DNA of 36,907 nucleotides, taken from positions 1 to 36,907 of IMG/VR virus record IMGVR_UViG_3300025451_000030. One strand, 5' to 3'. Under the pieces are notes generated by a model that was not told the DNA's origin, made no database searches, and was given only the letters and a program-made list of their open reading frames with translations. Each line of letters starts with the position of its first letter. The stretch's first letter is position 1. Below are positions 2,425 to 15,882 of this stretch, piece after piece. Both the position numbers and the translations under genes were made by a program. This DNA is from a virus (taxonomy: Duplodnaviria > Caudoviricetes).

Positions 2425-2642
2425 AAACCGAAACGATCACCTGGCACGAACTGCCGGCCGACGGCATGCCCGACGCCGAAACCACTGTGCTGCTGGAACT
2501 GCGCGAGCTGGACGGTGACGGCACCAAGGTTCAGACCGGCTGGCTGGCCCAGTCGGGCTGGGTCGACATCAACGCATGGCCGATCGAGGCTGGCCGCGTC
2601 GTCGCCTGGGCTGACGTGCCTGGCGGGACCGCTGCAGCATGA
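2421..2642 (+). CDS. Small phage protein, DUF551-like
   Basis: ITWHELPADGMPDAETTVL...VVAWADVP pattern; ATGA overlaps on both sides. Confidence 0.6.
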   Translation: MKTETITWHELPADGMPDAETTVLLELRELDGDGTKVQTGWLAQSGWVDINAWPIEAGRVVAWADVPGGTAAA

Positions 2643-3082
2643 ACCACACAGAACTGATTGCGCGGTTGTCCGCCATGTGGGCACAGCTCGACCCTGTGGA
2701 CGAGTGGCGGCCAGTTATCCGCGATGCAATCGACGCGCTGACCCCGCCCGCTGCAGGGGTGCCGGTTGAGCGAATGCTCAGGCCTTTGGTTTGGGCACGG
2801 AAGGACCAACTGCAACATGCCAGCACGCGAGGCGGACTGATGTGCGCCATGTACCCGAACACCGACCGGCGCGCAGACCTGCAGCCGCTGTATGACCAAG
2901 CTGCGCTAGGCGCCGCGCTGAACCTGTGGCCGCGCGACTGCCGTTTGTGCGCGAACTTCACGACGCAGGCAGGAGGGTGCGTGTCCGTGGTTCAGTGCGT
3001 GGACAGCATGCAATTCACGGCGACCACGCCGCGCCAGTATTGGGCGTCGGCGCCTAACGGCCAGGCCCAACGGCTGCCGTAG
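2639..3082 (+). CDS. Hypothetical protein, apparently chimeric (internal attC remnant; ends inside attC1)
   Basis: PVERMLRP is encoded by the attC-arm remnant; CxxC...CxxxxxC in the C-terminal part. Confidence 0.6.
   Translation: MNHTELIARLSAMWAQLDPVDEWRPVIRDAIDALTPPAAGVPVERMLRPLVWARKDQLQHASTRGGLMCAMYPNTDRRADLQPLYDQAALGAALNLWPRDCRLCANFTTQAGGCVSVVQCVDSMQFTATTPRQYWASAPNGQAQRLP
2762..2783 (-). repeat. Degenerate half attC remnant inside ORF 2639-3082
   Basis: CCGGTTGAGCGAATGCTCAGGC matches the family-A right arm CCGGTTGAGCGAATGGTTAGGC at 20/22 positions; no left arm found. Confidence 0.65.
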
Positions 3083-3108
3083 GCAGTCCGTTGCAGCCGT
3101 TGTTGGGC
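3052..3108 (-). repeat. attC-like site 1 (57 bp)
   Basis: GCCTAAC...CAACGGCTGCC-GTA-GGCAGTCCGTTG...GTTGGGC hairpin. Confidence 0.8.
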
Positions 3109-3132
3109 GTTGGTTGCTGACGCTGAACTTTA

Positions 3133-3184
3133 CATTGTGGGCAGTACGAAAACACTAGACAAAGCGCATTTGTGGCAGTACATT
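3133..3184 (+). promoter_or_regulatory. Sigma70-like promoter with direct-repeat operator, copy 1
   Basis: TAGACA(3156-3161)-17 bp-TACATT(3179-3184); CATT(n4)GCAGTAC repeated at 3133 and 3167; AT-rich island. Confidence 0.7.
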
Positions 3185-3227
3185 AATACCACTGCAGCAA
3201 GACGCCGCAGCAACCCAGGAGAGCAAC

Positions 3228-3503
3228 ATGACCGCTACCAAGATCCAAATCGGCATCGACACCAGCATTGACACCACCGAAGACGGCTACGACGGCGGCG
3301 ACGCGGTGATGATCGAATCGCACAACGGCACCGTTTGCATCACTGGCCCGTTTGAGGGCTGGATGGGCTACCAAACGCTGGCTGACCTGCCGATTGAGCA
3401 GGCCGATGAAGCCGACGCCCTGGCCCGCAAGATTGCGGCCGACCCCGTTGCCGAACTCACGGCGCTGGGCTATGACTTGGCCGGCTGGTTCAAGCCGCTG
3501 TGA
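3228..3503 (+). CDS. Cassette gene, acidic hypothetical protein
   Basis: AGGAGA RBS; GTGA overlap with the RHH gene. Confidence 0.75.
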   Translation: MTATKIQIGIDTSIDTTEDGYDGGDAVMIESHNGTVCITGPFEGWMGYQTLADLPIEQADEADALARKIAADPVAELTALGYDLAGWFKPL

Positions 3504-3682
3504 ACCAAGCTCCGGGAAAGGCCAAGCCGGGGCGCAAGCCCCTGGCCGATGGCGATGGCAAGACCGCCCGTGTGCAACTGAAGCTGACGCCGGCCGCGAA
3601 AGCCGATTGGCTGGCGAAAGCCGCCGCTGCCGGTTTGACGCTGCAAGCCTGGGTGGAGTTGCGGTGCAGCGGGAAGCGGTGA
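3500..3682 (+). CDS. Ribbon-helix-helix-like DNA-binding protein, copy 1
   Basis: GRKP basic arm, RVQLKLT strand and two helices (AAAAGLTLQAWV); 56/60 identical to 9267-9449. Confidence 0.7.
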   Translation: MNQAPGKAKPGRKPLADGDGKTARVQLKLTPAAKADWLAKAAAAGLTLQAWVELRCSGKR

Positions 3683-3683
3683 C

Positions 3684-3784
3684 GCCCAACGTTGCCAATG
3701 AGGCGGGGCAAACGGCGCTGCCGCTGCCGGCTACACCCACAACCAGACCCGCCGTTTGACCTCGCCTCGATTGGCGGGTTAGGC
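3684..3784 (-). repeat. attC-like site 2 (101 bp, family B)
   Basis: GCCCAACGTTGCCAATGAGGCG...CGCCTCGATTGGCGGGTTAGGC; near copy at 7891-7989. Confidence 0.85.
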
Positions 3785-3807
3785 CCTGGTGAACGTAGAG
3801 GGAACAA

Positions 3808-4140
3808 ATGAACCGCATGGAGCAACTGCTGGCGTTCTGCGATTGGGAGCGGAAGCACAACCCGCACCCGGAAGGCAAGCCGCATGTGGCGGAGTGGGCT
3901 GCTGCTGAGATTGAACGGCTGAACGGAGAAGTTGCGCTGTTGCGCGCCACGATGGAAGGCGCCACCTACCAACTGAGCAAGGCGCGCATTTGGGGCGGCA
4001 TGGAGTGGCATTACAACCCGTTGCACCCAATGCACTACAGGCCGGCGCTTGATCGTCTGCGCGAAGTGCTGGACGGGCCTAACGCTGTAGCTCACCGGAC
4101 CCTGGAGGCGGAACGCCGCAAGGGGTCCGGTGCAGCGTAG
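3808..4140 (+). CDS. Cassette gene, hypothetical (AAAEIERL coiled-coil motif); reads through most of attC3
   Basis: GAGGG RBS; stop lies inside attC3. Confidence 0.7.
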   Translation: MNRMEQLLAFCDWERKHNPHPEGKPHVAEWAAAEIERLNGEVALLRATMEGATYQLSKARIWGGMEWHYNPLHPMHYRPALDRLREVLDGPNAVAHRTLEAERRKGSGAA

Positions 4141-4148
4141 TGTTAGCG
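4077..4148 (-). repeat. attC-like site 3 (72 bp)
   Basis: GCCTAACGCTGTAGCTCACCGGACCC...GGGGTCCGGTGCAGCGTAGTGTTAGCG. Confidence 0.8.
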
Positions 4149-4307
4149 GGCCGGTGGCTTAGCGCGCAGCAGCACCGCACGCGCCCACTCTAGGCCATGC
4201 TCATCGATCTTTGCCCACACCGCTGGAGGCATGCGGATAGACCGCTGCACCAGGCGCTTGGCTTCCGGGATGGGTGGGCGCCCGCCCTTGTTCTTTGGCT
4301 GTTCCAT
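4143..4307 (-). CDS. Small RHH/antitoxin-like regulator, probably leaderless
   Basis: MEQPKNKGGRPP...VQRSIRMPPAVWAKI; TATACT 6 nt upstream of the ATG; stop TAA lies in the attC3 core. Confidence 0.65.
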   Translation of the reverse strand: MEQPKNKGGRPPIPEAKRLVQRSIRMPPAVWAKIDEHGLEWARAVLLRAKPPAR

Positions 4308-4313
4308 GCGGGC

Positions 4314-4365
4314 AGTATACGTGATGCACAAACCGCTTGCGCTTGCTTTGTTTGTGTGATTCAAT
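4314..4365. promoter_or_regulatory. Divergent promoter region
   Basis: Minus strand: -10 TATACT (4314-4319). Plus strand: TTGCGC-17 bp-TTCAAT with extended TG. Confidence 0.45.
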
Positions 4366-4399
4366 AACACCCATCGACACACCAACCGGAGCAAGCAAC

Positions 4400-4603
4400 A
4401 TGCAAACCACCCACCTGCAAAACATTGGCAAAGTAGCCGCGAAGCCCGCCGAACAGATCAAGGCCGGCGACGTGCTGGTTTGGAACTTCGGCAGCACCAG
4501 CGAAGTGCTGGCTGTTGAGCGCACCGCCAAGACTGTTGTGGTGAAGCTGTCGGGCGGCTACAGCCGTCGCTTTGGCGCCTCCCGCCTGGTGGCGGTGCAA
4601 TGA
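4400..4603 (+). CDS. Cassette gene, small beta-rich (SH3-like) protein
   Basis: GGAG RBS; KPAEQIKAGDVLVWNFG. Confidence 0.7.
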   Translation: MQTTHLQNIGKVAAKPAEQIKAGDVLVWNFGSTSEVLAVERTAKTVVVKLSGGYSRRFGASRLVAVQ

Positions 4604-4818
4604 AGGCGCACCTGGTGAAGATTCAGCGGGTAGCGACCGCTGCCCGCGAATACGACGCGGTGACGGTGTATGTAGGTGATCTGCGCCTGCGCTGCGATGC
4701 TATTGACGACCGAACGATCAGGCTGGCACGAAGGCTGGCAGAGGATTGCGGTGCGACGTTCATGTACGACGAACACAACGCCGAGCGAGTGCGGGCGGCT
4801 TGCGCGATTGCCGGCTAA
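4600..4818 (+). CDS. Cassette gene, hypothetical
   Basis: ATGA overlap; stop TAA is in the attC4 core. Confidence 0.65.
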   Translation: MKAHLVKIQRVATAAREYDAVTVYVGDLRLRCDAIDDRTIRLARRLAEDCGATFMYDEHNAERVRAACAIAG

Positions 4819-4886
4819 CGTTGGAGCTAAGGCGCCGACGTAGGGCCGCAGGCCCGTAGGAGGTCGCCTTGAGCGACCAGTTAGGC
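4813..4886 (-). repeat. attC-like site 4 (74 bp)
   Basis: GGCTAACGTTGGAGCTAAGGCG...CGCCTTGAGCGACCAGTTAGGC. Confidence 0.85.
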
Positions 4887-4906
4887 ATCAACGTGGAGAA
4901 ACAAGC

Positions 4907-5233
4907 ATGGAAGAGTGGGAAGAAGTCGATATACCGACACACCGGCTGAAAGATGCGAAGTGGGTTGCCACCGTGGCCGAGATTCGCAACAACGCCACGG
5001 GCGTGGTTCGCGAGTACCAGGACAACTCCATCATGGAAGACGGCGCGCCCGAGCCGAGCTCTTTCATGTGGGAAGACGGCAACTACGCCTGCGACTGCAA
5101 CCGCAAACTGTTTTTTGCTAGAGCGGCTGGCGAGGATGAGGATTGGGAAAGCGAATGCAGCGATGGCCTCTACTCCGTTCGCGTGCGGAACAAGAAAAGT
5201 GGCCGCGTGTTCTACAGCGAATTTGATGCCTAA
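4907..5233 (+). CDS. Cassette gene, hypothetical (WEDGNYACDCNR motif)
   Basis: GGAG RBS; stop TAA is in the attC5 core. Confidence 0.8.
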   Translation: MEEWEEVDIPTHRLKDAKWVATVAEIRNNATGVVREYQDNSIMEDGAPEPSSFMWEDGNYACDCNRKLFFARAAGEDEDWESECSDGLYSVRVRNKKSGRVFYSEFDA

Positions 5234-5296
5234 CGTGGCCGGTAACCGGCCTGGCCCGGCTTGCCGGGACAGGTCCGGTTGACCCGCCAGTTAGCC
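5228..5296 (-). repeat. attC-like site 5 (69 bp, family E)
   Basis: GCCTAACGTGGCCGGTAACCGG...CCGGTTGACCCGCCAGTTAGCC; unpaired G and T fall on the plus strand. Confidence 0.85.
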
Positions 5297-5339
5297 GGCA
5301 CTGGTGAAACGCCGGCACCTGCCTGAAAGGGCTGATACC

Positions 5340-5702
5340 TTGAACCAAGAGCAGATTGCCCGAGTGGCACACGAAGTGAACCGCGCCTATTGCCAGGCGC
5401 TGGGCGACCACAGCCAGCCAGCATGGGAAGACGCGCCGCAGTGGCAGCGCGACAGCGCCATGCTGGGCGTGAAGCTGCACACCGAAAACCCCGGCGCCAG
5501 CCCTTCCGCCAGCCATGAAAGCTGGATGGCGCAGAAGGTGGCCGAAGGCTGGGTCTACGGCCCCGAGAAGAAGCCAGAGCTGAAGCAGCACCACTGCATC
5601 GTGCCGTTTGACGCGCTGCCGGTGGCGCAGCAGGCGAAGGACTACATATTTCGCGGCGTGGTGCATGCCCTGGCGCACGCGCCGGCCACAGTTGCCGCAT
5701 AG
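5340..5702 (+). CDS. Cassette gene, RyR-domain phage protein
   Basis: IARVAHEVNRAYC...HESWMAQKVAEGWVYGPEK...HHCIVPFDALP...KD fits the RyR repeat signature; TTG start after GAAAGGG (GTG 5304 is an alternative). Confidence 0.8.
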   Translation: MNQEQIARVAHEVNRAYCQALGDHSQPAWEDAPQWQRDSAMLGVKLHTENPGASPSASHESWMAQKVAEGWVYGPEKKPELKQHHCIVPFDALPVAQQAKDYIFRGVVHALAHAPATVAA

Positions 5703-5737
5703 GTGCGCAGATGCCGGGCATGCAGGTATTGGTGTCC

Positions 5738-5837
5738 GGCTAACGTTCGAGCTAAGCAGGAGACAACGGCGTGACCATGCTGGACGAAGCCACAGAAGCG
5801 AGCGCCGTTGGCTCTCTGCTTGAGCGAGGAGTTATGC
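5738..5837 (-). repeat. attC-like site 6 (100 bp, family C); contains the RBS and GTG start of the downstream gene
   Basis: GGCTAACGTTCGAGCTAAGCAGGAGACAACGGC-GTG...GCCGTTGGCTCTCTGCTTGAGCGAGGAGTTATGC. Confidence 0.85.
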
Positions 5838-6631
5838 GCCCGGTGGAGTGCTTACGGACCGTGGCGGCCCTCTATGTTGAGCCGAAGGGCTGCTATGTGG
5901 GCGTGCCGGGTGTTGATGCTTGGGACGAAGCCCGCGATGCCCGCACCTACAACGGCCCGCACCCGGTGGTAGCGCACCCGCCCTGCCAGCGATGGGGCAG
6001 GTTCTGGCACGGCAGCACACGCAAACCGCATCAGTACAAGCTGGGCGACGATGGCGGGTGTTTTGCTGCTGCCCTGGCCGCGCTGCGCCTGAATGGCGGC
6101 GCGCTTGAGCACCCGATGGACTCGCATGCGTGGAAGTATTTCAGGCTGAAGAAGCCGCCGCGCAAAGGTGGGTGGGTTGAGGCCGCGCCAGGCTTGTGGA
6201 CATGCTGCGTGTACCAGGGCCACTACGGGCACCTTGCCGGCAAAGGAACATGGCTGCTTGTGGCTGGCGTGCCAAAGCGCCTGCTTCCCGAACTGCGCTG
6301 GGGCAAGACACCGCAGCGGCTGCACCCTCGCGCCGTGGAGTTGCACGGCTACGAGAAAGCGCGGCGCATTGGAATGATGGCGATGGTGGGCGGCAATGAC
6401 AAAACTGCGATTCGCAACGGCACGCCGCCTGAGTTCCGAGACTTGCTGATTGAGATTGCGCGCAGCGCAGTGAACCCGGTGGAGCAAGGTGCCGCCGCGC
6501 TGGCCCTGTTGAAGCGCATCCGCTACCACGCGCAGCGGCACGCGCTGCCGCGAGACTGGCTGACGGCAGCAGACGAGGTTTTAGGCACTTGGCATGCGGT
6601 GAAACTCACCCATTCCGAGATAGGCGCATAA
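5771..6631 (+). CDS. Cassette gene, DNA cytosine methyltransferase-like phage protein
   Basis: VVAHPPCQRW (motif IV PC-like) and LEHP (motif VI ENV-like); first ~22 codons lie in attC6; stop is in the attC7 core. Confidence 0.6.
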   Translation: MTMLDEATEASAVGSLLERGVMRPVECLRTVAALYVEPKGCYVGVPGVDAWDEARDARTYNGPHPVVAHPPCQRWGRFWHGSTRKPHQYKLGDDGGCFAAALAALRLNGGALEHPMDSHAWKYFRLKKPPRKGGWVEAAPGLWTCCVYQGHYGHLAGKGTWLLVAGVPKRLLPELRWGKTPQRLHPRAVELHGYEKARRIGMMAMVGGNDKTAIRNGTPPEFRDLLIEIARSAVNPVEQGAAALALLKRIRYHAQRHALPRDWLTAADEVLGTWHAVKLTHSEIGA

Positions 6632-6725
6632 CGCCAGGTTAAGCGGGAGACAACAGCCGTGACCAAGTATGAAGACGCGCAAGTGGTGGCCGCTGTTGGC
6701 TCTCCGCTTGAACCGACAGTTAGCC
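6626..6725 (-). repeat. attC-like site 7 (100 bp, family C); contains the RBS and GTG start of the downstream gene
   Basis: GCATAACGCCAGGTTAAGCGGGAGACAACAGCC-GTG...GCTGTTGGCTCTCCGCTTGAACCGACAGTTAGCC. Confidence 0.85.
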
Positions 6726-7489
6726 GTCATGCCGCGCCGCGCGTGATAGCGCAGTTTTCCTGCGGCGCTGCCTCGGCGGTGGCTACCAAGATGGCGCTGG
6801 CCCAGTACAAGGGCGCAGAGGTGGTGATTGCCAATGCGTTTTTGGTGGAAGAGGATGAAGACAACCGCCGCTTCTTGGCCGACTGCGAAGACTGGTTCGG
6901 TCAGCGCGCCCTGCAACTGCGGGATGAGAAGTACGGGGCCAGCGCCGACGAGGTGTGGCGGCGCAAGCGGTTCATGAAGGGGCGCAAGGGTGCGCCGTGC
7001 TCTGGCGAACTGAAGCGCAAGGTGCTGGACAAGGTGAAACGCCCCGACGATGTGCTGATATTTGGCTTCACCGCCGAAGAAGCAGACCGCTTCGATGACT
7101 TCCAAGAGCGCAACCCGCAACTGAAAGCCACTGCGCCGCTGGTGGAGAACGGGATTGGGAAGGCCGACTGTCTTGCGATGGTGCAGCGGGCCAGCATCAA
7201 GCTGCCGCTAGCCTACCGCCAGGGCTACAGCAACGCGAACTGCACCGGCTGCCCCAAGGGCGGCGAGGGCTACTGGAACCACGTTCGCAAGGTTCACCCG
7301 CTGGTGTTCCGTGCGCGCCTGGAGCGGCAGGAATCCATCGGCCCAGGCGCGTACTTCTTCCGCGACCGCGACACCGAAGAACGCTTCGGGTTGAAGGACT
7401 TGGACCCGAAGGCGGGCCGCCACGATGAACCGATGCCAGCGTGCAGTTTCTTCTGCGAGCTGGGCGAACAAGAGTACGCCGCCTCATGA
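6659..7489 (+). CDS. Cassette gene, PAPS-reductase-like (adenine nucleotide alpha-hydrolase) protein with Cys cluster
   Basis: FSCGAASAVA PP-loop variant, GAPC, NANCTGCPKGGEGYW, terminal CSFFC; first ~22 codons lie in attC7. Confidence 0.7.
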   Translation: MTKYEDAQVVAAVGSPLEPTVSRHAAPRVIAQFSCGAASAVATKMALAQYKGAEVVIANAFLVEEDEDNRRFLADCEDWFGQRALQLRDEKYGASADEVWRRKRFMKGRKGAPCSGELKRKVLDKVKRPDDVLIFGFTAEEADRFDDFQERNPQLKATAPLVENGIGKADCLAMVQRASIKLPLAYRQGYSNANCTGCPKGGEGYWNHVRKVHPLVFRARLERQESIGPGAYFFRDRDTEERFGLKDLDPKAGRHDEPMPACSFFCELGEQEYAAS

Positions 7490-7490
7490 C

Positions 7491-7590
7491 GGCTAACGTT
7501 TGAGCTAACCGGAAAACCCGGCAGCTACAGAAGATGATAGGCGCCACGGTGCCGCCTGCCGGGGTTTTCCGGTTGAGCGAATGGTTAGGC
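7491..7590 (-). repeat. attC-like site 8 (100 bp, family A)
   Basis: GGCTAACGTTTGAGCTAACCGGAAAACCCGGCAGC...GCCTGCCGGGGTTTTCCGGTTGAGCGAATGGTTAGGC. Confidence 0.9.
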
Positions 7591-7618
7591 CACGCATTGG
7601 TGGCAAGTGAGGAACGAC

Positions 7619-7882
7619 ATGAGAAGCACACTGTTGGCTGCAACCGCGTTGTCGGTGATGGCTGGTATGGGAGCGATTTCGCAGTCAATGCCTGCACCGC
7701 GCAAGGACAGCAACCGCGACTACAGGGACGCAGACATTGAGCGCGCCTTCGCTCGAAACGAGCGCCCGGCACCAGGCCCCGAAGAAGTGAAGCGTGCGGC
7801 GGTGCGCGCCGAGATTGCAGCGCACAACGCCGAAGTCGAGCGCCGCAAGGCCGAGAAGCGCGCTCGCAGGCTGACCCGCTGA
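7619..7882 (+). CDS. Cassette gene, hypothetical (hydrophobic N-terminus, basic coiled-coil C-terminus)
   Basis: GAGGA RBS; fills the cassette. Confidence 0.65.
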   Translation: MRSTLLAATALSVMAGMGAISQSMPAPRKDSNRDYRDADIERAFARNERPAPGPEEVKRAAVRAEIAAHNAEVERRKAEKRARRLTR

Positions 7883-7890
7883 ATTGCGGG

Positions 7891-7989
7891 GCCTAACGTT
7901 GCCGATGAGGCGGGGCAAACGGCCGCGCCGTGATGGCAGATGAACAAACCGCCCCGCCGTTTGACCTCGCCTCGATTGGCGGGTTAGGC
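7891..7989 (-). repeat. attC-like site 9 (99 bp, family B)
   Basis: Arms nearly identical to site 2, different loop. Confidence 0.85.
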
Positions 7990-8016
7990 GTGGCGAACGA
8001 AGCGAAAGGACATGGA

Positions 8017-8226
8017 ATGACTGAATGGACCAAGCCGGAATACAGGGTTGTGCGCGACAACTACAACGGCTATGAGGTGCAGATTCGGCGCTGGTGGCAT
8101 TGGCCGTTTTGGTGGCAAGCGGCTGGGAGCAACACCCACTCAAGCGTGGAAGCCGCAGAGACGTTTGCGGAGGGGCACGCACGCGCACGCGGCCCCGTGA
8201 AGCATCTCGGGAGGCTGGGCGCCTAA
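8017..8226 (+). CDS. Cassette gene, Trp-rich hypothetical (alternative in-frame start inside attC9 at 7930/7933)
   Basis: AAAGGA RBS; stop is in the attC10 core. Confidence 0.7.
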   Translation: MTEWTKPEYRVVRDNYNGYEVQIRRWWHWPFWWQAAGSNTHSSVEAAETFAEGHARARGPVKHLGRLGA

Positions 8227-8320
8227 CGTTTGAGCTAACCGGAAAACCCGGCAGCTACAGAAGATGGAAGGCACCACGGTGCCGCCTGCCGGGGTTTTCC
8301 GGTTGAGCGAATGGTTAGGC
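8221..8320 (-). repeat. attC-like site 10 (100 bp, family A)
   Basis: Minus strand reads R'' GCCTAAC, 5-bp CATTC, L'' GCTCAACC ... L' GGTTAGC, 6-bp TCAAAC, R' GTTAGGC, the canonical attC layout. Confidence 0.9.
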
Positions 8321-8342
8321 CTGGTGGCCGAAGGGGAAGACG

Positions 8343-8516
8343 ATGGAATTTGCTATGGGGATTTTGATTGGGTTTCTGCTGATGATGCTCTTGATTGGCA
8401 TTGCCGTCTGGGGAATGCACATGGGCCTTGAACTTGCTGTGGACGGCACAAAGAAGAAAGGCCACTTCTGCGCCTATGGCAAAAAGTGGAAAGTTGTTGA
8501 GACACCCGAGGCCTAG
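8343..8516 (+). CDS. Cassette gene, 57-aa membrane protein (not in ORF track)
   Basis: MEFAMGILIGFLLMMLLIGIAVWGMH...ETPEA*; GAAGGGGAAG RBS; lower GC. Confidence 0.7.
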   Translation: MEFAMGILIGFLLMMLLIGIAVWGMHMGLELAVDGTKKKGHFCAYGKKWKVVETPEA

Positions 8517-8518
8517 GG

Positions 8519-8618
8519 GCCTAACGTTTGAGCTAACCGGAAAACCCGGCAGCTACCGAATATGCAAGGCGCCACGGTGCCGCCTGCCGGGGTTTTCCGG
8601 TTGAGCGAATGGTTAGGC
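8519..8618 (-). repeat. attC-like site 11 (100 bp, family A)
   Basis: Arms identical to site 10, loop variant. Confidence 0.9.
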
Positions 8619-8641
8619 CTGGCGGCCGAAGGGGAAGAACG

Positions 8642-8830
8642 ATGACAAGCTGGATTCTGGTACTCACGATTTTGACCAGCGGCCACGGCGCAGCACTGAC
8701 AAACGTGCCCGGCTTCACGGCGCAGCAAGACTGCGCGGCAGCAGCAGCCGAGTGGCTCCGCGCAATGAACGCCCAGCCCGGAGGCTTCCGCTACTACAGC
8801 GCAATCTGTCTGCCGCAGAAGAGGGCCTAA
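8642..8830 (+). CDS. Cassette gene, small secreted/membrane protein with Cys pair
   Basis: MTSWILVLTIL...GFTAQQDCAAAA...AICLP; stop is in the attC12 core. Confidence 0.7.
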   Translation: MTSWILVLTILTSGHGAALTNVPGFTAQQDCAAAAAEWLRAMNAQPGGFRYYSAICLPQKRA

Positions 8831-8893
8831 CGTTGCCGGTAACCGGATTGACCCGGCTTGCCGGGGCAATTCCGGTTGAGCGGCGTGTTGGGC
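8825..8893 (-). repeat. attC-like site 12 (69 bp, family E)
   Basis: GCCTAACGTTGCCGGTAACCGG...CCCGGCTTGCCGGG...CCGGTTGAGCGGCGTGTTGGGC; same loop as site 5. Confidence 0.85.
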
Positions 8894-8918
8894 GTTGTTG
8901 CCGGAGCGCGTGTCTTTA

Positions 8919-8970
8919 CATTGGTGGCAGTACGAAAACACTAGACAAGGCGCATTGTTGGCAGTACATT
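8919..8970 (+). promoter_or_regulatory. Sigma70-like promoter with direct-repeat operator, copy 2
   Basis: TAGACA(8942-8947)-17 bp-TACATT(8965-8970); same GGCAGTAC repeats as 3133-3184. Confidence 0.7.
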
Positions 8971-9015
8971 AACACCACTGCAGCAAGTCGCCGCAGCAAC
9001 CCACAGGAGAGCAAC

Positions 9016-9270
9016 ATGACAGAAGTTCAAGCCCTGCAAGCCGAAGCCACCCGCCAAGATGCGATTGCTCAGGCCCTGCGCGCCGATGTGCAAACCGCAG
9101 AAGCTGCCGCCGCCGCGATCACGGACCAAGATTCGACCGAAGCAGGCATTGCCTGGGCGCGTGCGGGCGGATTGCGCCACGCAATGGACGAAGCCATCGA
9201 AGCCATGCGCAAGGCTCACCGCGATGCAGCTGACATCGAAGACCCGGACGGCCTGCGGGCGGAAGCATGA
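9016..9270 (+). CDS. Cassette gene, Ala-rich helical hypothetical
   Basis: AGGAGA RBS; ATGA overlap with the RHH gene. Confidence 0.7.
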   Translation: MTEVQALQAEATRQDAIAQALRADVQTAEAAAAAITDQDSTEAGIAWARAGGLRHAMDEAIEAMRKAHRDAADIEDPDGLRAEA

Positions 9271-9449
9271 ACCAAGCCCCGGAGAAAGCCAAGCCGGGGC
9301 GCAAGCCCCTGGCCGATGGCGAGGGCAAGACGGCCCGCGTGCAACTGAAGCTCACGCCGGCCGACAAAGCCGATTGGCTGGCAAAGGCAGCCGCTGCCGG
9401 TTTGACGCTGCAGGCGTGGGTAGAGAAGCGGTGCAGCGGTAAGCGATGA
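9267..9449 (+). CDS. Ribbon-helix-helix-like DNA-binding protein, copy 2
   Basis: Paralog of 3500-3682. Confidence 0.7.
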   Translation: MNQAPEKAKPGRKPLADGEGKTARVQLKLTPADKADWLAKAAAAGLTLQAWVEKRCSGKR

Positions 9450-9450
9450 C

Positions 9451-9469
9451 GCCCAACTAGTCGATATGC
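9451..9469 (-). other. attI-like simple site (lone core plus degenerate L box) terminating array 1
   Basis: Minus strand GCATATC-GACTA-GTTGGGC = 7-bp degenerate L box, 5-bp spacer, GTTRRRY, with no attC hairpin. Same geometry as the attI1 simple site. Confidence 0.55.
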
Positions 9470-9849
9470 CAACTTTCCAAACTCCGAACCGATGGCGCCG
9501 CTACAACGCCACACCAGGCGCACACCAGCGCCGGCAGCGTGCGCGGGAAGCCGCCAGCATTGCAGGCCCCGCGCCGGCCTACCCGCCGACCGCCCCACTG
9601 CATGGCGACTGGCTGGGCGGCTGCATCAACGGACAGACCGTGATCGTGCGGCTGATGCGCGATCCGTCGCACAGGTCAGACCAATGGGCCGCCGAGATCG
9701 ACGGCGGAACGGTGGCCGATGCTGCTGGCTTGACGCGGCTGTGGGCGCTGCTGCATCCGCGCTGGGGCAAGGCGCCGAGCAAGCGGGCATTGGCGACGAT
9801 GCAAGAACGCTGGACCGACCGAGACGAACACGACGCCGCAATGGCGTGA
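9466..9849 (+). CDS. Hypothetical phage protein; its start overlaps the attI-like site
   Basis: ORF fills the gap to the next RBS; no clear RBS of its own. Confidence 0.5.
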   Translation: MPTFQTPNRWRRYNATPGAHQRRQRAREAASIAGPAPAYPPTAPLHGDWLGGCINGQTVIVRLMRDPSHRSDQWAAEIDGGTVADAAGLTRLWALLHPRWGKAPSKRALATMQERWTDRDEHDAAMA

Positions 9850-9856
9850 GGACACC

Positions 9857-10444
9857 ATGAGCAACACTGACGAACTTTGCGCCGCTGCACAACAGGCCCT
9901 GGTGGCAATGGAGAAGTACCCGGTCACGGTGAATCACTGGAAAGCGGTGCTGCTGCCTGCCGCTGATGCACTGCGCGCCGCCCTGGCGCAGCAGCCCGCC
10001 GCCCCTGACCGCTGGAATGAGGGGTTCAAGCACGGCCAGTGGCTGGCGAAGCACTCCGCCCCTGTTGTGGAGCGCGCAGACTCTGCAACGCCTGTTGTGG
10101 AGCGTAGCGCCGGGAATGTGAGCGACAACGCCGCCCCTGTGGCGCCTGCCCGCTGGTACTGCGTGACCAACTACGGAGGCGCCACGCTGTGCACTGGCCG
10201 CGACGATGCCGCCGAGGTGGCGGCCGAGCAGGACATCGCCATTCCGCGCCATGGGCCGCACCGGGCCGTGATGCTGGCAGAAGTGCCGCCTGCGCGAGTG
10301 CCGCTGACCGAGGCGGAGATTGCGTCAATGCAGCGCAAAGCAAACACAACCGGCGTTCAGTTTTTACAGTCGTCAACCGTGCGATGGATCGTTCGCGCCA
10401 TCGAAGCCGCCCACGGCATCACGGCGCAAGGAGAACTGAAGTGA
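9857..10444 (+). CDS. Mosaic hypothetical phage protein (ALRAALAQ... PLTEAEI... RAIEAAHGI motifs)
   Basis: GAGGA RBS; motifs typical of betaproteobacterial phage early-region proteins; internal PVVER duplication. Confidence 0.7.
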   Translation: MSNTDELCAAAQQALVAMEKYPVTVNHWKAVLLPAADALRAALAQQPAAPDRWNEGFKHGQWLAKHSAPVVERADSATPVVERSAGNVSDNAAPVAPARWYCVTNYGGATLCTGRDDAAEVAAEQDIAIPRHGPHRAVMLAEVPPARVPLTEAEIASMQRKANTTGVQFLQSSTVRWIVRAIEAAHGITAQGELK

Positions 10445-10728
10445 CCGACGCACTGCACATTGCTGACGGCTACTCAGCCCGCCCCTACGGTGACGGCTAC
10501 ATCATCCACCACGAAAGCGGAGGCGCCTGGGCGGCTGATCTGGCGATGGTTGCCGCCGTGCTGGAGATTGCCCGCCTGCGCGCAGCCGACGACGCCCACC
10601 GTGCCGCATTTGCAGCGATCTACACCGCGCTGCAACCGGCTGACCCCGACCGCGCCACATGGCCGGCTGAGATTGCCCGCCTGCGCGCCATGCTGGCCGC
10701 CGTCATTGTTGGGAACCGGACATCATGA
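10441..10728 (+). CDS. Hypothetical phage protein with duplicated EIARLRA
   Basis: AGGAG RBS, GTGA overlap. Confidence 0.6.
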   Translation: MTDALHIADGYSARPYGDGYIIHHESGGAWAADLAMVAAVLEIARLRAADDAHRAAFAAIYTALQPADPDRATWPAEIARLRAMLAAVIVGNRTS

Positions 10729-10865
10729 GCACCCTGCTGGAGGTTCTGGGCCTGGTGCTGCTGATCCTGCTGGTGGTCGCCCTGTGGTTCGTGTTCCGAG
10801 GCGACCCGAGCCTGATCGATCTGTGGCACCGGGCCGCGATGCAGGCCGCTGGAGGTGTGCGGTGA
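10725..10865 (+). CDS. 46-aa membrane protein (not in ORF track)
   Basis: MSTLLEVLGLVLLILLVVALWFVF...; ATGA and GTGA overlaps. Confidence 0.6.
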   Translation: MSTLLEVLGLVLLILLVVALWFVFRGDPSLIDLWHRAAMQAAGGVR

Positions 10866-11089
10866 AGGTCAGGATGATCAAGCGGCGCCACGACCGGCGC
10901 ACCACCTTCAAGGCGCTGCTGTGGGCCGGCATGAACGACGAAATGCGCTGGCACACGCTGGAGTACGACGGCGATGACCCATGGGACGACGACATGCCCG
11001 GCGACGCATGCCTGCACTGCCACGGCGACGGCATGGACCCGGACTGCGACTACCTGTTGCAGTGCCCGGACTGCGGCGGGAGTTGGTGA
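10862..11089 (+). CDS. Small protein with DnaJ-like CxxCxGxG zinc finger
   Basis: CLHCHGDG...CPDCGG; GGAGG RBS. Confidence 0.6.
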   Translation: MKVRMIKRRHDRRTTFKALLWAGMNDEMRWHTLEYDGDDPWDDDMPGDACLHCHGDGMDPDCDYLLQCPDCGGSW

Positions 11090-11307
11090 TGGCGGCAGTA
11101 ACGCTGCATTTCCGAGCCGACCGCCTGCACAAGACCTGCGGCGTGTGCGGGGCGGATCTGAACCGGCGCGTCAGCCGCTGGTGGCTGACGAACTGCTGGA
11201 CGGCCGACCCGAAGGAATACCGCGCGCAGCAGAGCTGCCACCCGGCAGAGACTGTGCGGCCCTGCGGAGTACTGGACCGCAGCAAGACGCCCAACCGACG
11301 GAGATAA
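11089..11307 (+). CDS. Small Cys-rich protein; ends inside attC13
   Basis: TGATG coupling; CGVCG. Confidence 0.55.
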   Translation: MAAVTLHFRADRLHKTCGVCGADLNRRVSRWWLTNCWTADPKEYRAQQSCHPAETVRPCGVLDRSKTPNRRR

Positions 11308-11359
11308 GCCGCCGGCCGCCGGCCGCCTGCGGGCGGTCGGCTTGATCGACCTGTTCGGC
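11289..11359 (-). repeat. attC-like site 13 (71 bp)
   Basis: GCCCAACCGACGGAGATAAGCCG...CGGCTTGATCGACCTGTTCGGC. Confidence 0.75.
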
Positions 11360-11386
11360 CTCTGGCGCCGAAGCGAAAGGACTGTG

Positions 11387-11578
11387 ATGAGCCTGAACTA
11401 CCGAGAGACTGACGACGAGTGCCCCGGTTGCGGAGCGACTGCCCGCGGCAGGCGAGACAACAAGCCGAACTCTCCGCAGGGGTTGAGCGAGTGCCCGCAA
11501 TGCGGCGCAGAGAAATGCTGCATGTGTGACATGGGCGATGACGTGGAATGCGCCTCGTGCGACCTAGGCGACGAGTAG
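11387..11578 (+). CDS. Cassette gene, Cys-rich zinc-finger protein
   Basis: CPGC, CPQC, CCMC, CASC; AAAGGA RBS. Confidence 0.7.
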   Translation: MSLNYRETDDECPGCGATARGRRDNKPNSPQGLSECPQCGAEKCCMCDMGDDVECASCDLGDE

Positions 11579-11579
11579 G

Positions 11580-11631
11580 GCCTAACGTCATGCTAGCCGG
11601 CGCGTAGCGTCCGGCTGAGCTGGGGTTGGGC
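11580..11631 (-). repeat. attC-like site 14 (52 bp, very short)
   Basis: GCCTAACGTCATGCTAGCCGGCGC-GTA-GCGTCCGGCTGAGCTGGGGTTGGGC. Confidence 0.75.
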
Positions 11632-11656
11632 GGCTGTGCGACGAAGCGAAGGACGA

Positions 11657-11881
11657 ATGATGAGCATGGACTACATCCGCCGCACCTACGGTGTGCCGGC
11701 CAAACGCGGGATGACCGTCACCATCTGCGGCGACGGAACGCGCTTCCAGGCGCGCATCGTCGGGTCTCGCGGGCAGTACCTGCGGCTATGGATTCCAGGC
11801 GGCAAGCGCTCGCACCTGTACCACCCGACCGATTCGCTGGAGTACCCGGCCGCAGCAAAGGGCAAGACGCCCAACGGCTGA
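11657..11881 (+). CDS. Cassette gene, small phage protein (YIRRTYGVPAKRG...YHPT family)
   Basis: AAGGA RBS; ends PNG* inside attC15. Confidence 0.75.
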   Translation: MMSMDYIRRTYGVPAKRGMTVTICGDGTRFQARIVGSRGQYLRLWIPGGKRSHLYHPTDSLEYPAAAKGKTPNG

Positions 11882-11935
11882 ACTCACCGGACGGCCCGGC
11901 CTGCCGGGCAGGTCCGGTGCAGTGACGTGTTGGGC
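11869..11935 (-). repeat. attC-like site 15 (67 bp, family D arms)
   Basis: GCCCAACGGCTGAACTCACCGG...CCGGTGCAGTGACGTGTTGGGC. Confidence 0.85.
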
Positions 11936-11964
11936 GGCTGGTTGATTGACGAACAGGAACAAGC

Positions 11965-12207
11965 ATGCTGAAACCTGAACACCTAGACGGCGCACTGCGG
12001 CAAGAACAGATGCAGGAGCGGGCGGATTGGAGAGCCGCCAACGAACCCGGCAGCGCGTCAGCTTCTCCATGGGAGCGCGGGCGCCTGGATGCGCTTGCCG
12101 GCAAAGCGGCGCCCGACCTTGTGCGCCCGGACGGCGCGTGGTCGGCACGGCTGTACGCGGCGGGGTGGGATCGCGGGGCGGAGCGGCGCAAGACGACCAA
12201 CGTTTGA
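11965..12207 (+). CDS. Cassette gene, hypothetical (WERGRLDA...AAGWDRG, Rmf/CrpP-like pattern)
   Basis: AGGA RBS; ends TNV* inside attC16. Confidence 0.6.
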   Translation: MLKPEHLDGALRQEQMQERADWRAANEPGSASASPWERGRLDALAGKAAPDLVRPDGAWSARLYAAGWDRGAERRKTTNV

Positions 12208-12293
12208 GCTAACCGGACCGGCCAGGCGCCGGGATGGTGACAGATGAACAGGACGGACCGCCTGGCTGGGTCCGGTTGAGCGAATGGTTAGGC
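12195..12293 (-). repeat. attC-like site 16 (99 bp; family-A outer arms, family-D inner stem)
   Basis: GACCAACGTTTGAGCTAACCGGACCGGCCAGGCG...CGCCTGGCTGGGTCCGGTTGAGCGAATGGTTAGGC. Confidence 0.88.
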
Positions 12294-12550
12294 CCGGCTC
12301 AGAAGCGCGCCAAGAATTGACCGCTGCCCTGGACAAAAGCGGCAGTGTGGTGCTGATAGACGTGGATGGCGAAATCCTGTTTTACGCGGCAGACGGCAAG
12401 ATGAAGGTGCAGCGGCTGGGCCAGGAGTGCGAGGGTTGCATTGCTGCGAATATGAAGCTGGCCGATGCTGTGGCGCAGGCATGGAACGCGAAACTCAAGC
12501 GCGCCGCTGACCCAACGAACAGCCGCCCGCGCTGTGGTCTTGGGGCCTAA
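12284..12550 (+). CDS. Cassette gene, hypothetical; ATG lies in the attC16 arm
   Basis: Fills the cassette; stop is in the attC17 core; start uncertain. Confidence 0.55.
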   Translation: MVRPGSEARQELTAALDKSGSVVLIDVDGEILFYAADGKMKVQRLGQECEGCIAANMKLADAVAQAWNAKLKRAADPTNSRPRCGLGA

Positions 12551-12645
12551 CGCTTGAAGTGAGGCGCCTTTGACGGCGCGAAGAAAGGACGACGATGAAC
12601 CAACATGACACGCCGGCAAAGGTCGCCTCGACTGATGGGTTAGGC
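12545..12645 (-). repeat. attC-like site 17 (101 bp); RBS and ATG of the downstream gene lie in its loop
   Basis: GCCTAACGCTTGAAGTGAGGCGCCTTTGACGGCG...AAAGGACGACGATG...CGCCGGCAAAGGTCGCCTCGACTGATGGGTTAGGC. Confidence 0.85.
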
Positions 12646-12963
12646 CCGCTGGTTGCTGACGCGCTGACAGCCGCAGACGAATACGCGGAAGCAGCCGGCC
12701 ACGCCGAGTGCTGGACGGGCACGCGCGCCAGCTACAACCAGCACCTAGCCGATGCGCGCACCAAGGCGCGCCAGGCCATTGATGCGGCCGTGGCCGCAGA
12801 GCGCGGGCGGTGGGAAGCCTTGCTTGAAGATCGCGCCCAGATTCATGGCGAGTCGTCGCGCATCTATGCGCGCCTAGCGAGCGCTGTGCGCGCCGGGGCC
12901 GGTGACATTGTTTTGGGGCAACTGCTTCGCGCCGAGGTGCAGGGAAGAGGGCCTAACGGCTGA
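12595..12963 (+). CDS. Cassette gene, hypothetical; starts in the attC17 loop and ends in attC18
   Basis: AAAGGA RBS plus ATG inside the hairpin loop. Confidence 0.7.
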   Translation: MNQHDTPAKVASTDGLGPLVADALTAADEYAEAAGHAECWTGTRASYNQHLADARTKARQAIDAAVAAERGRWEALLEDRAQIHGESSRIYARLASAVRAGAGDIVLGQLLRAEVQGRGPNG

Positions 12964-13048
12964 ACTCACCGGACCGGCCAGGCGCCGGGGTGGTGACAAA
13001 CGCGGACCCGCCCCGCCTGGCTGGGTCCGGTGCAGTGATGGGTTAGGC
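12951..13048 (-). repeat. attC-like site 18 (98 bp, family D)
   Basis: GCCTAACGGCTGAACTCACCGGACCGGCCAGGCG...CGCCTGGCTGGGTCCGGTGCAGTGATGGGTTAGGC. Confidence 0.88.
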
Positions 13049-13071
13049 CTGGTGGCCGAAGGGGAAGAACG

Positions 13072-13263
13072 ATGGACATGCGACAGACGCTGCCGGAACT
13101 GTGGCGCAGTCACGATGGCTTGTGGTGGATTGGGCAGGCCGTGGCGTTGATGCTGGCCCTGTCGCTTCTGTTCAACGGCTACGGCGGCCCCGTTGCTGCG
13201 GCTGTTGGCTACGCGCTGGCAGTGCTGGTTGACATCCGCGAGGCGGTGTCGAAGCGGGCCTAA
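13072..13263 (+). CDS. Cassette gene, 2-TM membrane protein
   Basis: Two hydrophobic segments; stop is in the attC19 core. Confidence 0.7.
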   Translation: MDMRQTLPELWRSHDGLWWIGQAVALMLALSLLFNGYGGPVAAAVGYALAVLVDIREAVSKRA

Positions 13264-13321
13264 CGGCTGAACTCACCGGACCGGCCGGCCTGCCGGCTGG
13301 GTCCGGTGCAGTGGGTTAGGC
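13258..13321 (-). repeat. attC-like site 19 (64 bp, family D; 3-bp spacer deletion)
   Basis: Right arm CCGGTGCAGTGGGTTAGGC versus CCGGTGCAGTGATGGGTTAGGC in site 18. Confidence 0.8.
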
Positions 13322-13344
13322 GTGGTGAACGAAGGGGAAGAACG

Positions 13345-13548
13345 ATGCAATGCAAGAACTGCGGCAAGGCCGCCGACCAGCACAACGCCAAAACTCGGGC
13401 ATGCCCCGGCGGCCGGAAGCACCGGACGCACGGTTACCCGTGGTTCCACCAGACGCAGGTTTTTGAAGCGCACAAGCAGTGCCCCAACAAGCGTGGCGGT
13501 GTGTGCGGCAAGGCTGGCCCGTGCTTGAGCCCAGCATGTGGTGGCTGA
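13345..13548 (+). CDS. Cassette gene, Cys/His-rich small protein
   Basis: CKNCG..H..CP..; GAAGGGGAAG RBS. Confidence 0.65.
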   Translation: MQCKNCGKAADQHNAKTRACPGGRKHRTHGYPWFHQTQVFEAHKQCPNKRGGVCGKAGPCLSPACGG

Positions 13549-13549
13549 C

Positions 13550-13648
13550 GCCTAACGTTTGAGCTAACCGGAAAACCCGGCAGCTACCGAATTGAGAAGC
13601 GCTGCGGCGCGGCCTGCCGGGGTTTTCCGGTTGAGCGAATGGTTAGGG
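13550..13648 (-). repeat. attC-like site 20 (99 bp, family A)
   Basis: Arms as in sites 8/10/11; ends GTTAGGG. Confidence 0.88.
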
Positions 13649-13667
13649 CTGTTGTTGGAGAAACGTG

Positions 13668-13766
13668 ATGAACAAGCGCTTCGTGCGCTGGGCCGGCCTC
13701 AAACACCCGGCCACGCTGGGCGGCGATGTCGTCGAGCGCTGGCTAGGGCCCCGATCTATTGCCTGA
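13668..13766 (+). CDS. 32-aa ORF in the last, possibly truncated cassette
   Basis: GGAG RBS; MNKRFVRWAGLKHP...SIA*. Confidence 0.35.
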   Translation: MNKRFVRWAGLKHPATLGGDVVERWLGPRSIA

Positions 13767-13797
13767 CAACACCTTGCAGCGGCACCACCCTGCCCGC

Positions 13798-14070
13798 TCA
13801 TTCAGGCTCGGCCTGCAGCCCTGCTGGCACGCCGTGCCGCCACCTGGCTGCAGACAGGGTCAACCACACCAGCACCGCAAGCACCAGCACCGTCTTGCCA
13901 GCCATCGCCGGCAGCACCAGGCTGAAGCTGAGCCCCGCGAACATCACCAGGTGCTGCATGCGCACTGGCGCCGGCGTGGCCCGCGTCATCTTGGCAGCGC
14001 GGCAAATGATGGAGAACATGGCCATGATGGTGGCCACAGCCTGGGTGATCAACAACAGGTCAGCATTCAT
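13798..14070 (-). CDS. Membrane protein, putative holin-associated
   Basis: 3 hydrophobic segments; ATGA overlap with the upstream holin-like gene. Confidence 0.65.
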   Translation of the reverse strand: MNADLLLITQAVATIMAMFSIICRAAKMTRATPAPVRMQHLVMFAGLSFSLVLPAMAGKTVLVLAVLVWLTLSAARWRHGVPAGLQAEPE

Positions 14071-14480
14071 TGATCAACCCCAAGGCGACAGGTGATGAAT
14101 TTCTTGGCCAGGCCGCCGGCCCAGGCTGCAACGCCCGGCCAGTCGTGCCCGATGTACGCAATGCCGCCACTGATGGGCACCAGCAGGTAGCGCGGGTCGA
14201 TCTGCAGGCCGGCCTGGTCGAATGCGTCCGAGGCAAGCGCAGCCAGCGCACCGGTGAGCAGCACCGACAGCATGGTCAGCAGCAAGATGAAGCCAAGCGC
14301 CTGCATGCGGGTGCTGCCCTCTCGGCGCATCTCGGCGCCGACGGCGCCCACTAGGGCCGATGCGATGATCACCGCATAGGGGCCGGCGTAGCGTGCCACC
14401 TCGTCACCAGCCAGCGCACCAATGGCGACAACTGCAACGGTCACCACGTCGAGCTGGATCTGTTCTGCTGGTGGCGTCAT
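14067..14480 (-). CDS. Putative holin
   Basis: 3-4 TM segments (YAVIIASALVGA...); end of the late operon. Confidence 0.6.
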   Translation of the reverse strand: MTPPAEQIQLDVVTVAVVAIGALAGDEVARYAGPYAVIIASALVGAVGAEMRREGSTRMQALGFILLLTMLSVLLTGALAALASDAFDQAGLQIDPRYLLVPISGGIAYIGHDWPGVAAWAGGLAKKFITCRLGVDQ

Positions 14481-14947
14481 TTCGTCCCTTTGACCATGGC
14501 TTGCCGATACACCACCAGGGCGGCCAGGGCGCCCAAGCTGAGCCCGATCAGCCCCATGGGCAAACCGAATCGATCACTGCACCGGCTGCCGGTGTCCACC
14601 GGCCACGGCTCCAGCATCCACAGCAGGCCGCAGCCCACCACCTGGGCATCCTCGAAGCACCACCAGAGCGACGCCGCAGTGACGGCCCAGCTGCGGTATG
14701 CCAGGGCCACCAGCGCCAGCAGTACCAGCCGGCCCAGGGCACTGCCCATGTTCCATGCTTCGGCCTGCAGCGCCTCTGGTACGTGCCCCCAGGCGTAGAA
14801 GACCACCCAGCAGCACAGCAACATCAGCGCGGCCGGCACATGGTGCGGCTGCCGCTCCCACCGATCCAGCAGATCGAGCAGCTGAGCCCAGGCGGTGCGC
14901 GGCGTGATGGGGCGCAGCCAAGCCATGGCAGCGCGGGCCGCTCGCAT
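14477..14947 (-). CDS. Multi-TM membrane protein
   Basis: Hydrophobic; TGATG and ATGA coupling; start reassigned to 14947. Confidence 0.6.
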   Translation of the reverse strand: MRAARAAMAWLRPITPRTAWAQLLDLLDRWERQPHHVPAALMLLCCWVVFYAWGHVPEALQAEAWNMGSALGRLVLLALVALAYRSWAVTAASLWWCFEDAQVVGCGLLWMLEPWPVDTGSRCSDRFGLPMGLIGLSLGALAALVVYRQAMVKGTK

Positions 14948-15177: not shown

Positions 15178-15882
15178 ATGAAAGCTATCAACCTGCCCGG
15201 AGTCCTTGTCGCCGCCATCATGACCGCTTGCGGTGGTGGTGGTGGTGGAGACCTGCAAAACACGCAGGCTGCGGCTTGCGTCCCAAAAATGCCGGTGCGG
15301 CTGTTGATGTTTGGGGATTCGACGTTCAGCGGCACCGGAGCATCCCAGGATTTGAACGGAAACCTGACATACGCTCCAGCGCCAATCATCCAGCGTGCAA
15401 TGGACCTGCAGTTCGGAGCTGGCGCTGTGCAGGTGCTCAATTACTCGGTGATGGGCAGCTCCAGCGCTGATTTGGTGGCGGGTATCGATGGCGTCAATGC
15501 ACCGTGGCCCACGCCGGCGTTGGGTGGAGACATCGCCATCATCAACCATGGGATCAACGACCAGTTGCGCCAAACGCCCATTGCGGCATACCGGGCGAAC
15601 CTTGCGGCCTTTACCGCAGTAGGCATTCCCGTGGTGCTGCAGACGCCAAACCCCACGTTTCGCGGCTGGGAAAGCGTCGCCCACATTCAGGCTGTGCGGG
15701 ACACCGCGGCAGCTGCTGGCCGCACGCTGGCCGACGTGCACGGGTACATGAGTGGTCTCGCCAACGCTGCGCAATACTTCCCCGACGGAGTGCACCCGAA
15801 CGACGCCGGGTATCAGCTGATCGTCAACAACGTGACGCTGCCGGCCTTGGTGCCCCTGGTCGCTAAGCTGCGCTGCCAGTGA
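15178..15882 (+). CDS. SGNH/GDSL hydrolase lipoprotein (antisense moron)
   Basis: Lipobox MTA-C followed by poly-G; blocks FGDS, G, GIND and DGVHP. Confidence 0.88.
   Translation: MKAINLPGVLVAAIMTACGGGGGGDLQNTQAAACVPKMPVRLLMFGDSTFSGTGASQDLNGNLTYAPAPIIQRAMDLQFGAGAVQVLNYSVMGSSSADLVAGIDGVNAPWPTPALGGDIAIINHGINDQLRQTPIAAYRANLAAFTAVGIPVVLQTPNPTFRGWESVAHIQAVRDTAAAAGRTLADVHGYMSGLANAAQYFPDGVHPNDAGYQLIVNNVTLPALVPLVAKLRCQ

Follow-up and report, generated by a model that had tools for sequence, protein, structure and literature searches.

The 36,907-nucleotide stretch analysed here (the window) is the whole of a linear IMG/VR record of a tailed phage (IMGVR_UViG_3300025451_000030), about 50% complete. 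Between positions 3052 and 13648 its plus strand carries 20 hairpins of the type of attC, the recombination site of integron cassettes. With a lone hairpin-less core at 9451, they delimit 19 units in which each hairpin is followed by its gene or genes. Probably, this is an integron-type cassette array of reversed polarity, the units of which were likely excised as circles, then inserted by an integron integrase (IntI) supplied in trans and cutting the folded coding strand at AA|C. By definition it is a cluster of attC sites lacking an integron integrase (CALIN), and it works like an integron cassette array, while consisting neither of canonical cassettes nor of a complete integron.

The sites were listed by reading the sequence and by constrained folding. 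Twelve hairpins make up a first array (3052-9457, plus strand), at 3052-3108, 3684-3784, 4077-4148, 4813-4886, 5228-5296, 5738-5837, 6626-6725, 7491-7590, 7891-7989, 8221-8320, 8519-8618 and 8825-8893. A second array of the same polarity (11289-13648, plus strand) holds eight, at 11289-11359, 11580-11631, 11869-11935, 12195-12293, 12545-12645, 12951-13048, 13258-13321 and 13550-13648; the right arm of the hairpin at 13258 is short by 3 nt, which metagenome contigs from runs X3 and X5 possess. The sites have inverted R cores (AAC/GTT), spacers of 5-7 nt and paired L boxes, the L stem pairing at eight or nine of nine positions in 17 of the 20. A strict detector misses six of these sites and every site of the published TJE1 CALIN; a flexible one returns 6 false sites per Mb of simulated DNA. 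Nothing in the window matched Rfam. A CALIN takes at least two clustered attC sites with no intact intI nearby: here there are 20, on a contig (itself about 50% complete) devoid of PF00589, and where a complete integron has an intact intI beside its array, the window has only a probable remnant of 26 residues.

The initial annotation had proposed that the two ends of each unit are reverse complements, a trace of circular intermediates that leaves integrated sites as hybrids. The seven end pairs it quoted are exact, with perfect lengths of 9, 9, 12, 9, 10, 13 and 9 nt. The permutation test it had suggested gives, for the 19 units, an average perfect end pairing of 8.42 nt against 5.28 +/- 0.43 nt for permuted ends; none of 200,000 permutations reaches 8.42, so that the ends of a given unit match each other better than ends paired at random. 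The 12 units outside the quoted examples give 7.42 versus 5.47 nt (35 of 200,000 permutations). Unit ends also pair better than the two cores of one integrated site (8.42 versus 5.30 nt), and sites circularised in silico fold more stably than integrated hybrids in 16 of 19 cases (mean -4.0 kcal/mol). Pairing extends beyond the 7-nt core, as in canonical cassettes, with position 8 paired in 19 of 19 units (expected fraction 0.43); it is weakest in 11353-11586 (3 nt), 11929-12201 (5 nt) and 4142-4819 (6 nt). The 277 units of other viral loci replicate the result, with 8.11 versus 4.38 nt (maximum 4.75 in 20,000 permutations), and 144 bacterial chromosomal units used as a control yield 10.1 versus 6.5 nt. 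As most integron cassettes self-pair over 9-11 nt (PMC2727003, in the part of the text accessible), a property also found in the bacterial control, the pairing seen in the window is expected and unsurprising. Self-complementary ends and hybrid sites are thus as the initial annotation described them and its interpretation is supported, together with its caveat that end pairing does not fix orientation. Other evidence does fix it: the cassettes are reversed.

Part of this evidence comes from hairpin geometry. According to the accessible parts of two studies, the bottom strand of attC is marked by an extra-helical base opposite the cleaved AAC (PMC5027507, PMC2727003) and by a G after that AAC (PMC2727003). 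In the window, the plus strand fits bottom geometry better at 18 of 20 sites, two degenerate sites being ties; one of these is the hairpin at 3052, bottom geometry being favoured at the other 11 of the 12 hairpins of the first array. The extra-helical base is on the plus strand in 18 sites (G or C in 17), AAC is followed by G at 19 of 20 sites on the plus strand and at none on the minus strand, and folding is better on plus than on minus in 17 of 19. The genes therefore sit on the bottom strand of their sites in 11 of 11 scored units, not on the top strand ahead of an attC as in canonical cassettes. Applied to controls, the same reading gives top geometry on the gene strand for the four sites detected in a class 1 integron (MH445380) and for all three sites of the TJE1 CALIN. 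Beyond the window, strand calls from the longest open reading frame (ORF) gave 28 bottom, 47 tie and 12 top for GC-rich viral units, a result so noisy that a codon model was used instead. With this model and the flexible detector, the genes of all viral units fall on the bottom strand in 207 cases and on the top strand in 2, with 65 weak calls; the viral IntI loci contribute 31 bottom, 0 top and 27 weak, the other viral loci 176, 2 and 38. Bacterial loci yield 45 top, 3 bottom, 3 ties and 102 weak. A 21-nt arm of the commonest window hairpin recurs verbatim in 155 stretches of bacterial genomes. All five such genomes that were checked encode IntI; in three, the gene lies on the array contig and, by coordinates, in the usual position; in bacterial arrays sharing this arm, 98 genes are top, 18 tie and 8 are bottom (by ORF length).

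A cassette is accordingly predicted, on sequence grounds, to comprise a hairpin and the gene downstream of it, with the crossover at AA|C in the left core. A first test of which hairpin travels with a gene was underpowered (one informative pair of eight). When homologous units are compared, similarity is higher for the upstream than for the downstream hairpin in all 7 of the 7 pairs that combine a body identity of at least 0.87 with a difference of at least 0.1. Over all informative pairs, which are not independent of each other, the figure is 30 of 38. Other populations show turnover with the same boundaries. Among metagenome contigs from four studies (runs X2, X3, X5 and X14), pieces matching the window end at the left cores at 3690, 4085, 4820, 5235, 6633, 7898, 11875 and 12958 and start at those at 4081, 5740 and 9455; X2 and X14 each contain the stretch 4081-4820 as an unbroken piece with no difference from the window. 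There is no depth over 13796-14600 in X5 and X14.

The downstream end of the first array is a fixed point. The attI-like site at 9451-9469 (plus strand) consists of a core, a 5-nt spacer and an inverted imperfect core that holds the ATG of the next gene; it has no hairpin and does not fold (z -0.24). This gene, the anchor gene (9466-9849, plus strand, 127 aa), belongs to a conserved phage family of unknown function and is fused to the site. Ten of its 11 viral relatives retain the 5' end, and all ten have the core, the 5-nt spacer and the inverted imperfect core around the ATG, behind nine different upstream sequences. In five aligned relatives, homology to the window begins at 9447-9452, and the sequence upstream differs. 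The left core of the anchor pairs over 7-13 nt with the 5' core of the last cassette in the window and in eight of ten relatives, and over 6 and 3 nt in the other two. Together, the fixed start of homology and the pairing of cores point to a docking site with crossover at AA|C. No attI-like core was found at the end of the second array. As for the anchor protein, it has 132 homologues, none with a Pfam match, and an Atlas match of only 0.76; its structural model (predicted template modelling score, pTM, 0.34) has no fold match in PDB or BFVD and does not resemble recombinases. Among 401 family genomes, only four give weak matches to the gene. The site at 9451 could derive from a collapsed attC or from an attG-type site. 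Ahead of the cassette that starts at 4880, run X6 has a collapsed site, reduced to two cores 5 nt apart by loss of the hairpin interior; at the same place (4813-4886/4874-5234 in the window), contigs of X3, X5, X8 and X14 have overhangs of 26-28 nt. Spaced like the anchor site at 9451, the collapsed site is a possible route to new docking sites.

The enzyme itself has left what is probably a trace. Where relatives have attI and intI, the window has a 32-codon ORF (13668-13766, plus strand) that, by sequence resemblance, is a probable remnant of the IntI N-terminal domain: among 941 frames compared with an IntI profile it scores best (positions 25-50, E 0.022), its place and strand are those predicted, and 11 of 25 residues are identical to the truncated IntI of a related locus (L063), while Pfam gives no match. 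In L063 (4800-5190), a lone core and an IntI cut short at about 100 residues close the array, and convergent lysis genes follow directly; this is an independent loss of intI at the corresponding place. No IntI exceeds the cut-off in any of 36 viral records bearing an array or cassettes, a set to which L063 belongs and in which 10 records are at least 90% complete. Other relatives (G445, G443, L296) have an intact intI beside the array, and L296 shares the window gene at 1292. Two of them, G445 and G443, represent complete temperate phages: both encode virion proteins and a phage integrase distinct from IntI, and both have intact attI and intI at the corresponding array end. In G445 a repressor gene heads the operon formed by array and intI, and the last cassette before intI is a homologue of the window gene at 5834, in the phrog_12600 cassette. 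PF03354 had no match in five IntI-bearing records; PHROGs found virion genes in the two complete ones. Viral loci with IntI relatives were examined as a first set of 12, then as the best 80 of 132. An upstream site was detected at 27 of these best 80 of 132, and all 27 have bottom geometry on the intI strand; TIGR02249 is matched at E <= 1e-30 by nine of nine aligned members. A tree of 111 IntI sequences (FastTree, midpoint-rooted, bacterial rows mostly from one family, no donor being claimed) unites 21 viral sequences in one clade (0.986) and sets them off from 29 sequences, mostly chromosomal, that include IntI1; further viral groups exist and a few viral rows lie among bacterial ones. IntI is present in 53 of 121 genomes of a plausible host family among the Burkholderiales. 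The virus Rctr41k (KX853513) has an IntI-like gene, with no clear array in the 11.6 kb examined.

In the mechanism that we infer, IntI acting in trans would cut the folded coding strand, free a hairpin with its gene as a circle and insert such units, one at a time, at a downstream site. New cassettes would enter at the downstream end, through the 9451 site and, formerly, through an attI near 13650 that would now be deleted, so that the newest gene would come last in the early transcript. Genes would be read from the phage early operon and from promoters carried by cassettes (3156, 8942), toward intI and not from the integron platform promoter, Pc. As the window phage appears to have lost its own, the enzyme would be borrowed from the host chromosome or from a co-resident phage.

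How well do other explanations fare? The hairpins might be integron relics, the units now being shuffled by homologous recombination that joins similar hairpins with the help of phage or host proteins. Hairpin families are indeed near-identical repeats, one hairpin precedes different genes, one gene occurs with different hairpins in divergent phages, and the absence of IntI over the cut-off from the 36 array-bearing viral records would be natural. Such shuffling is nevertheless improbable: cassette-specific end pairing has been kept (position 8, 19 of 19), and boundaries fall at a 3-nt AAC between dissimilar hairpins, as well as at the hairpin-less anchor, where there is no usable homology. 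Another phage-encoded recombinase, prophage integrase or for instance the anchor gene product, might act on the sites instead. In a complete phage (G009), array and anchor gene lie directly before the phage integrase with no IntI found, and the spacing at 9451 is unlike that of attI beside intI. We regard this as very unlikely, since chromosomal IntI arrays share the identical 21-nt arm, the bulged bases read by IntI are retained, related phages encode bona fide IntI (the nine of nine TIGR02249 matches) and the anchor protein resembles no recombinase. Still less probable is that hairpins and paired ends act in RNA, as processing or translation signals and not in recombination. To be sure, the hairpins are part of the mRNA strand, which is also the strand on which folding is better, and several frames start or end inside them; yet bacterial integrons and TJE1 have equivalent geometry on the non-coding strand, and gene content switches exactly at the cores. 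The hairpins may have an additional role in RNA. Finally, stop codons within the RYYTAAC core (7 of 21, as in canonical cassettes) and a hairpin family common to hosts might recall canonical gene-then-attC cassettes captured from a bacterial integron, a view hardly tenable against the bulge side, the G after AAC, the downstream anchor, the upstream hairpin that travels with its gene, and the failure of all 16 window genes tried to match 1.2 Mb of bacterial integron loci.

Several observations weigh against a reversed array worked by a borrowed IntI. The circular intermediates are deduced, no recombination having been observed; circle junctions for 3650-5330 were absent from four contig sets, although contigs drop rare forms and cannot show absence. 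The hairpins at 3684 and 4813 precede other genes in other populations and 8 of the 38 informative pairs favour the downstream hairpin, so that hairpins must also be exchanged between cassettes. No tyrosine recombinase domain (PF00589) or IntI was found in the contig, which is half complete, and the E value of the putative remnant is only 0.022. The spacer at 9451 is 5 nt, versus mostly 4 nt at cores beside phage and host intI; the site may therefore be a collapsed attC or a secondary site and not a true attI. The codon model for strand calls was trained on the window phage and left 102 of 153 bacterial units uncalled, and the viral loci were retrieved with queries derived from the window. Two viral units are canonical (L122 near 8092, L126 near 872); they are possibly host-type cassettes or mis-assigned contigs.

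The cassettes carry phage-like genes wherever matches exist: RyR-domain, phrog_12600, PAPS-reductase-like and NikA-like. The cassette body at 3102-3690 (plus strand) has its own sigma-70-like promoter at 3156-3184 and two genes, of which the first is variable and the second is small and encodes a NikA-like DNA-binding protein (PF21983, below cut-off). A related copy at 8887-9457 (plus strand, promoter 8942-8970) shows identities of 0.86 in the promoter part, 0.56 in the first gene and 0.89 in the second. In the phrog_12600 cassette (5738-6632, plus strand) and the PAPS-reductase-like one (6626-7497, plus strand; phrog_424, weak SspD match), the reading frame extends back without interruption to a start within the upstream hairpin, and three frames in all are open from within their own hairpin. 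The weak SspD match is the only one that PADLOC gives for 23 genes. Among 21 upstream genes called by hand, the stop codon lies in the core for 7, just short of it for 6 and farther ahead for 2; the remaining 6 extend into the next hairpin. A consensus scan found no minus-strand promoter, such as would correspond to Pc, at the docking site, which the genes face. GenBank phages have only single genes in common with the first array.

Some cassettes deserve a separate mention. In that at 4142-4819 the centre is AT-rich, and two genes on the plus strand accompany a short ORF on the minus strand (about 4143-4296). Several other populations contain this cassette in identical form and at high depth, with other genes found beyond 4391, and only short matches to 4150-4810 exist in the 401 family genomes; its make-up suggests a promoter cassette that regulates itself and carries a variable payload. 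After the hairpins at 8314, 8612, 13042 and 13315 (family D1), a near-identical leader with a purine-rich ribosome site precedes unrelated genes, hinting that new cassettes are made by swapping the gene behind a hairpin-plus-leader module. Left of the arrays, the ORF 2639-3082 contains two degenerate right arms, at 2762-2791 (repeat family D7) and, by eye, at about 2853-2912; these are probably what erosion has left of the oldest cassettes, which would be found here if the array grew from the right. The inter-array stretch (9857-11307, plus strand) holds five small phage ORFs without hairpins and is missing from a close relative (L386). In PHROGs terms, the plus strand before 13766 bears small and mostly unknown genes, and head (HK97-like), portal, terminase and tail genes occupy the minus strand from about 15900. 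The convergent late region (13798-36858, minus strand) encodes membrane proteins, tail, HK97-like head, portal and terminase; it also holds a plus-strand GDSL lipase-like gene and an AT-richer polysaccharide-deacetylase-like gene (15178-15882; 28806-30302).

With class 1 integrons (PMC2727003, PMC5027507, as far as these texts were accessible), the system shares R and L boxes, a bulged G or C in one arm with a T seven bases on, a variable loop, sites of 52-101 nt, self-complementary ends and hybrid integrated sites; in IntI-bearing relatives, site polarity relative to attI and intI is also the usual one. It differs in that the window genes lie on the bottom strand, that the hairpin precedes the gene and that genes point to attI and intI; facing them, the genes could not be expressed by the platform Pc. 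The accessible text of Qi et al. (2023, PMC9892861) describes phage integrons and CALINs, with IntI1 active on phage attC. Those CALINs are similar in having an attC cluster without a full integrase and small phage-like genes. By contrast, TJE1 is canonical, additional CALINs have 2-4 sites each and reversed polarity is not described in that text, whereas the window has 20 sites, a fixed docking site and a probable IntI remnant. For one site detected in MW202573 (L429, 3670-3738), the gene strand is the one with bottom geometry, so the published CALIN data set may already contain an unremarked reversed case. Burkholderiales sedentary chromosomal integrons, such as the Pseudaquabacterium pictum W35 array (L161/L206/L207, intI L285), have the identical 21-nt arm; their genes are mostly on the top strand, and their IntI groups with IntI1, outside the 21-member viral clade. 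The attG secondary sites (bioRxiv 10.1101/2022.09.11.507474, accessible part) accept insertions at a hairpin-less GWT without intI nearby, and an event of this kind could have founded the 9451 site; it departs from them in its conservation, in its second, inverted core and in its repeated use by phages whose last cassettes differ. A literature search, poor in its coverage of subscription journals, found no paper on phage cassettes of reversed polarity.

It seems to us an evenly balanced proposition that temperate phages run an integron class of their own. A phage clade of IntI would end an early operon controlled by a repressor, and a separate pool of back-to-front cassettes would be traded between unrelated backbones; acceptor phages without integrase would retain just the docking site, joined to a conserved gene, and use IntI from elsewhere. 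The reversed polarity seen here challenges the rule that attC polarity serves to put genes under Pc. It also implies that metagenome scans for attC will fail to separate phage from bacterial cassettes and will assign genes to sites that are not theirs. The gain and swap of small genes in phage early regions are mostly ascribed to homologous or illegitimate recombination. With boundaries exact to the base, identical units in populations without the backbone, and a known enzyme with its sites, the question of how genes are swapped becomes testable. If the proposal is true, reversed polarity would insulate the two pools although their sites are common, anti-phage cassettes of the host being silent in a phage array and phage cassettes silent behind a host Pc, and a site-specific engine would lie behind the mosaic early regions of such phages.

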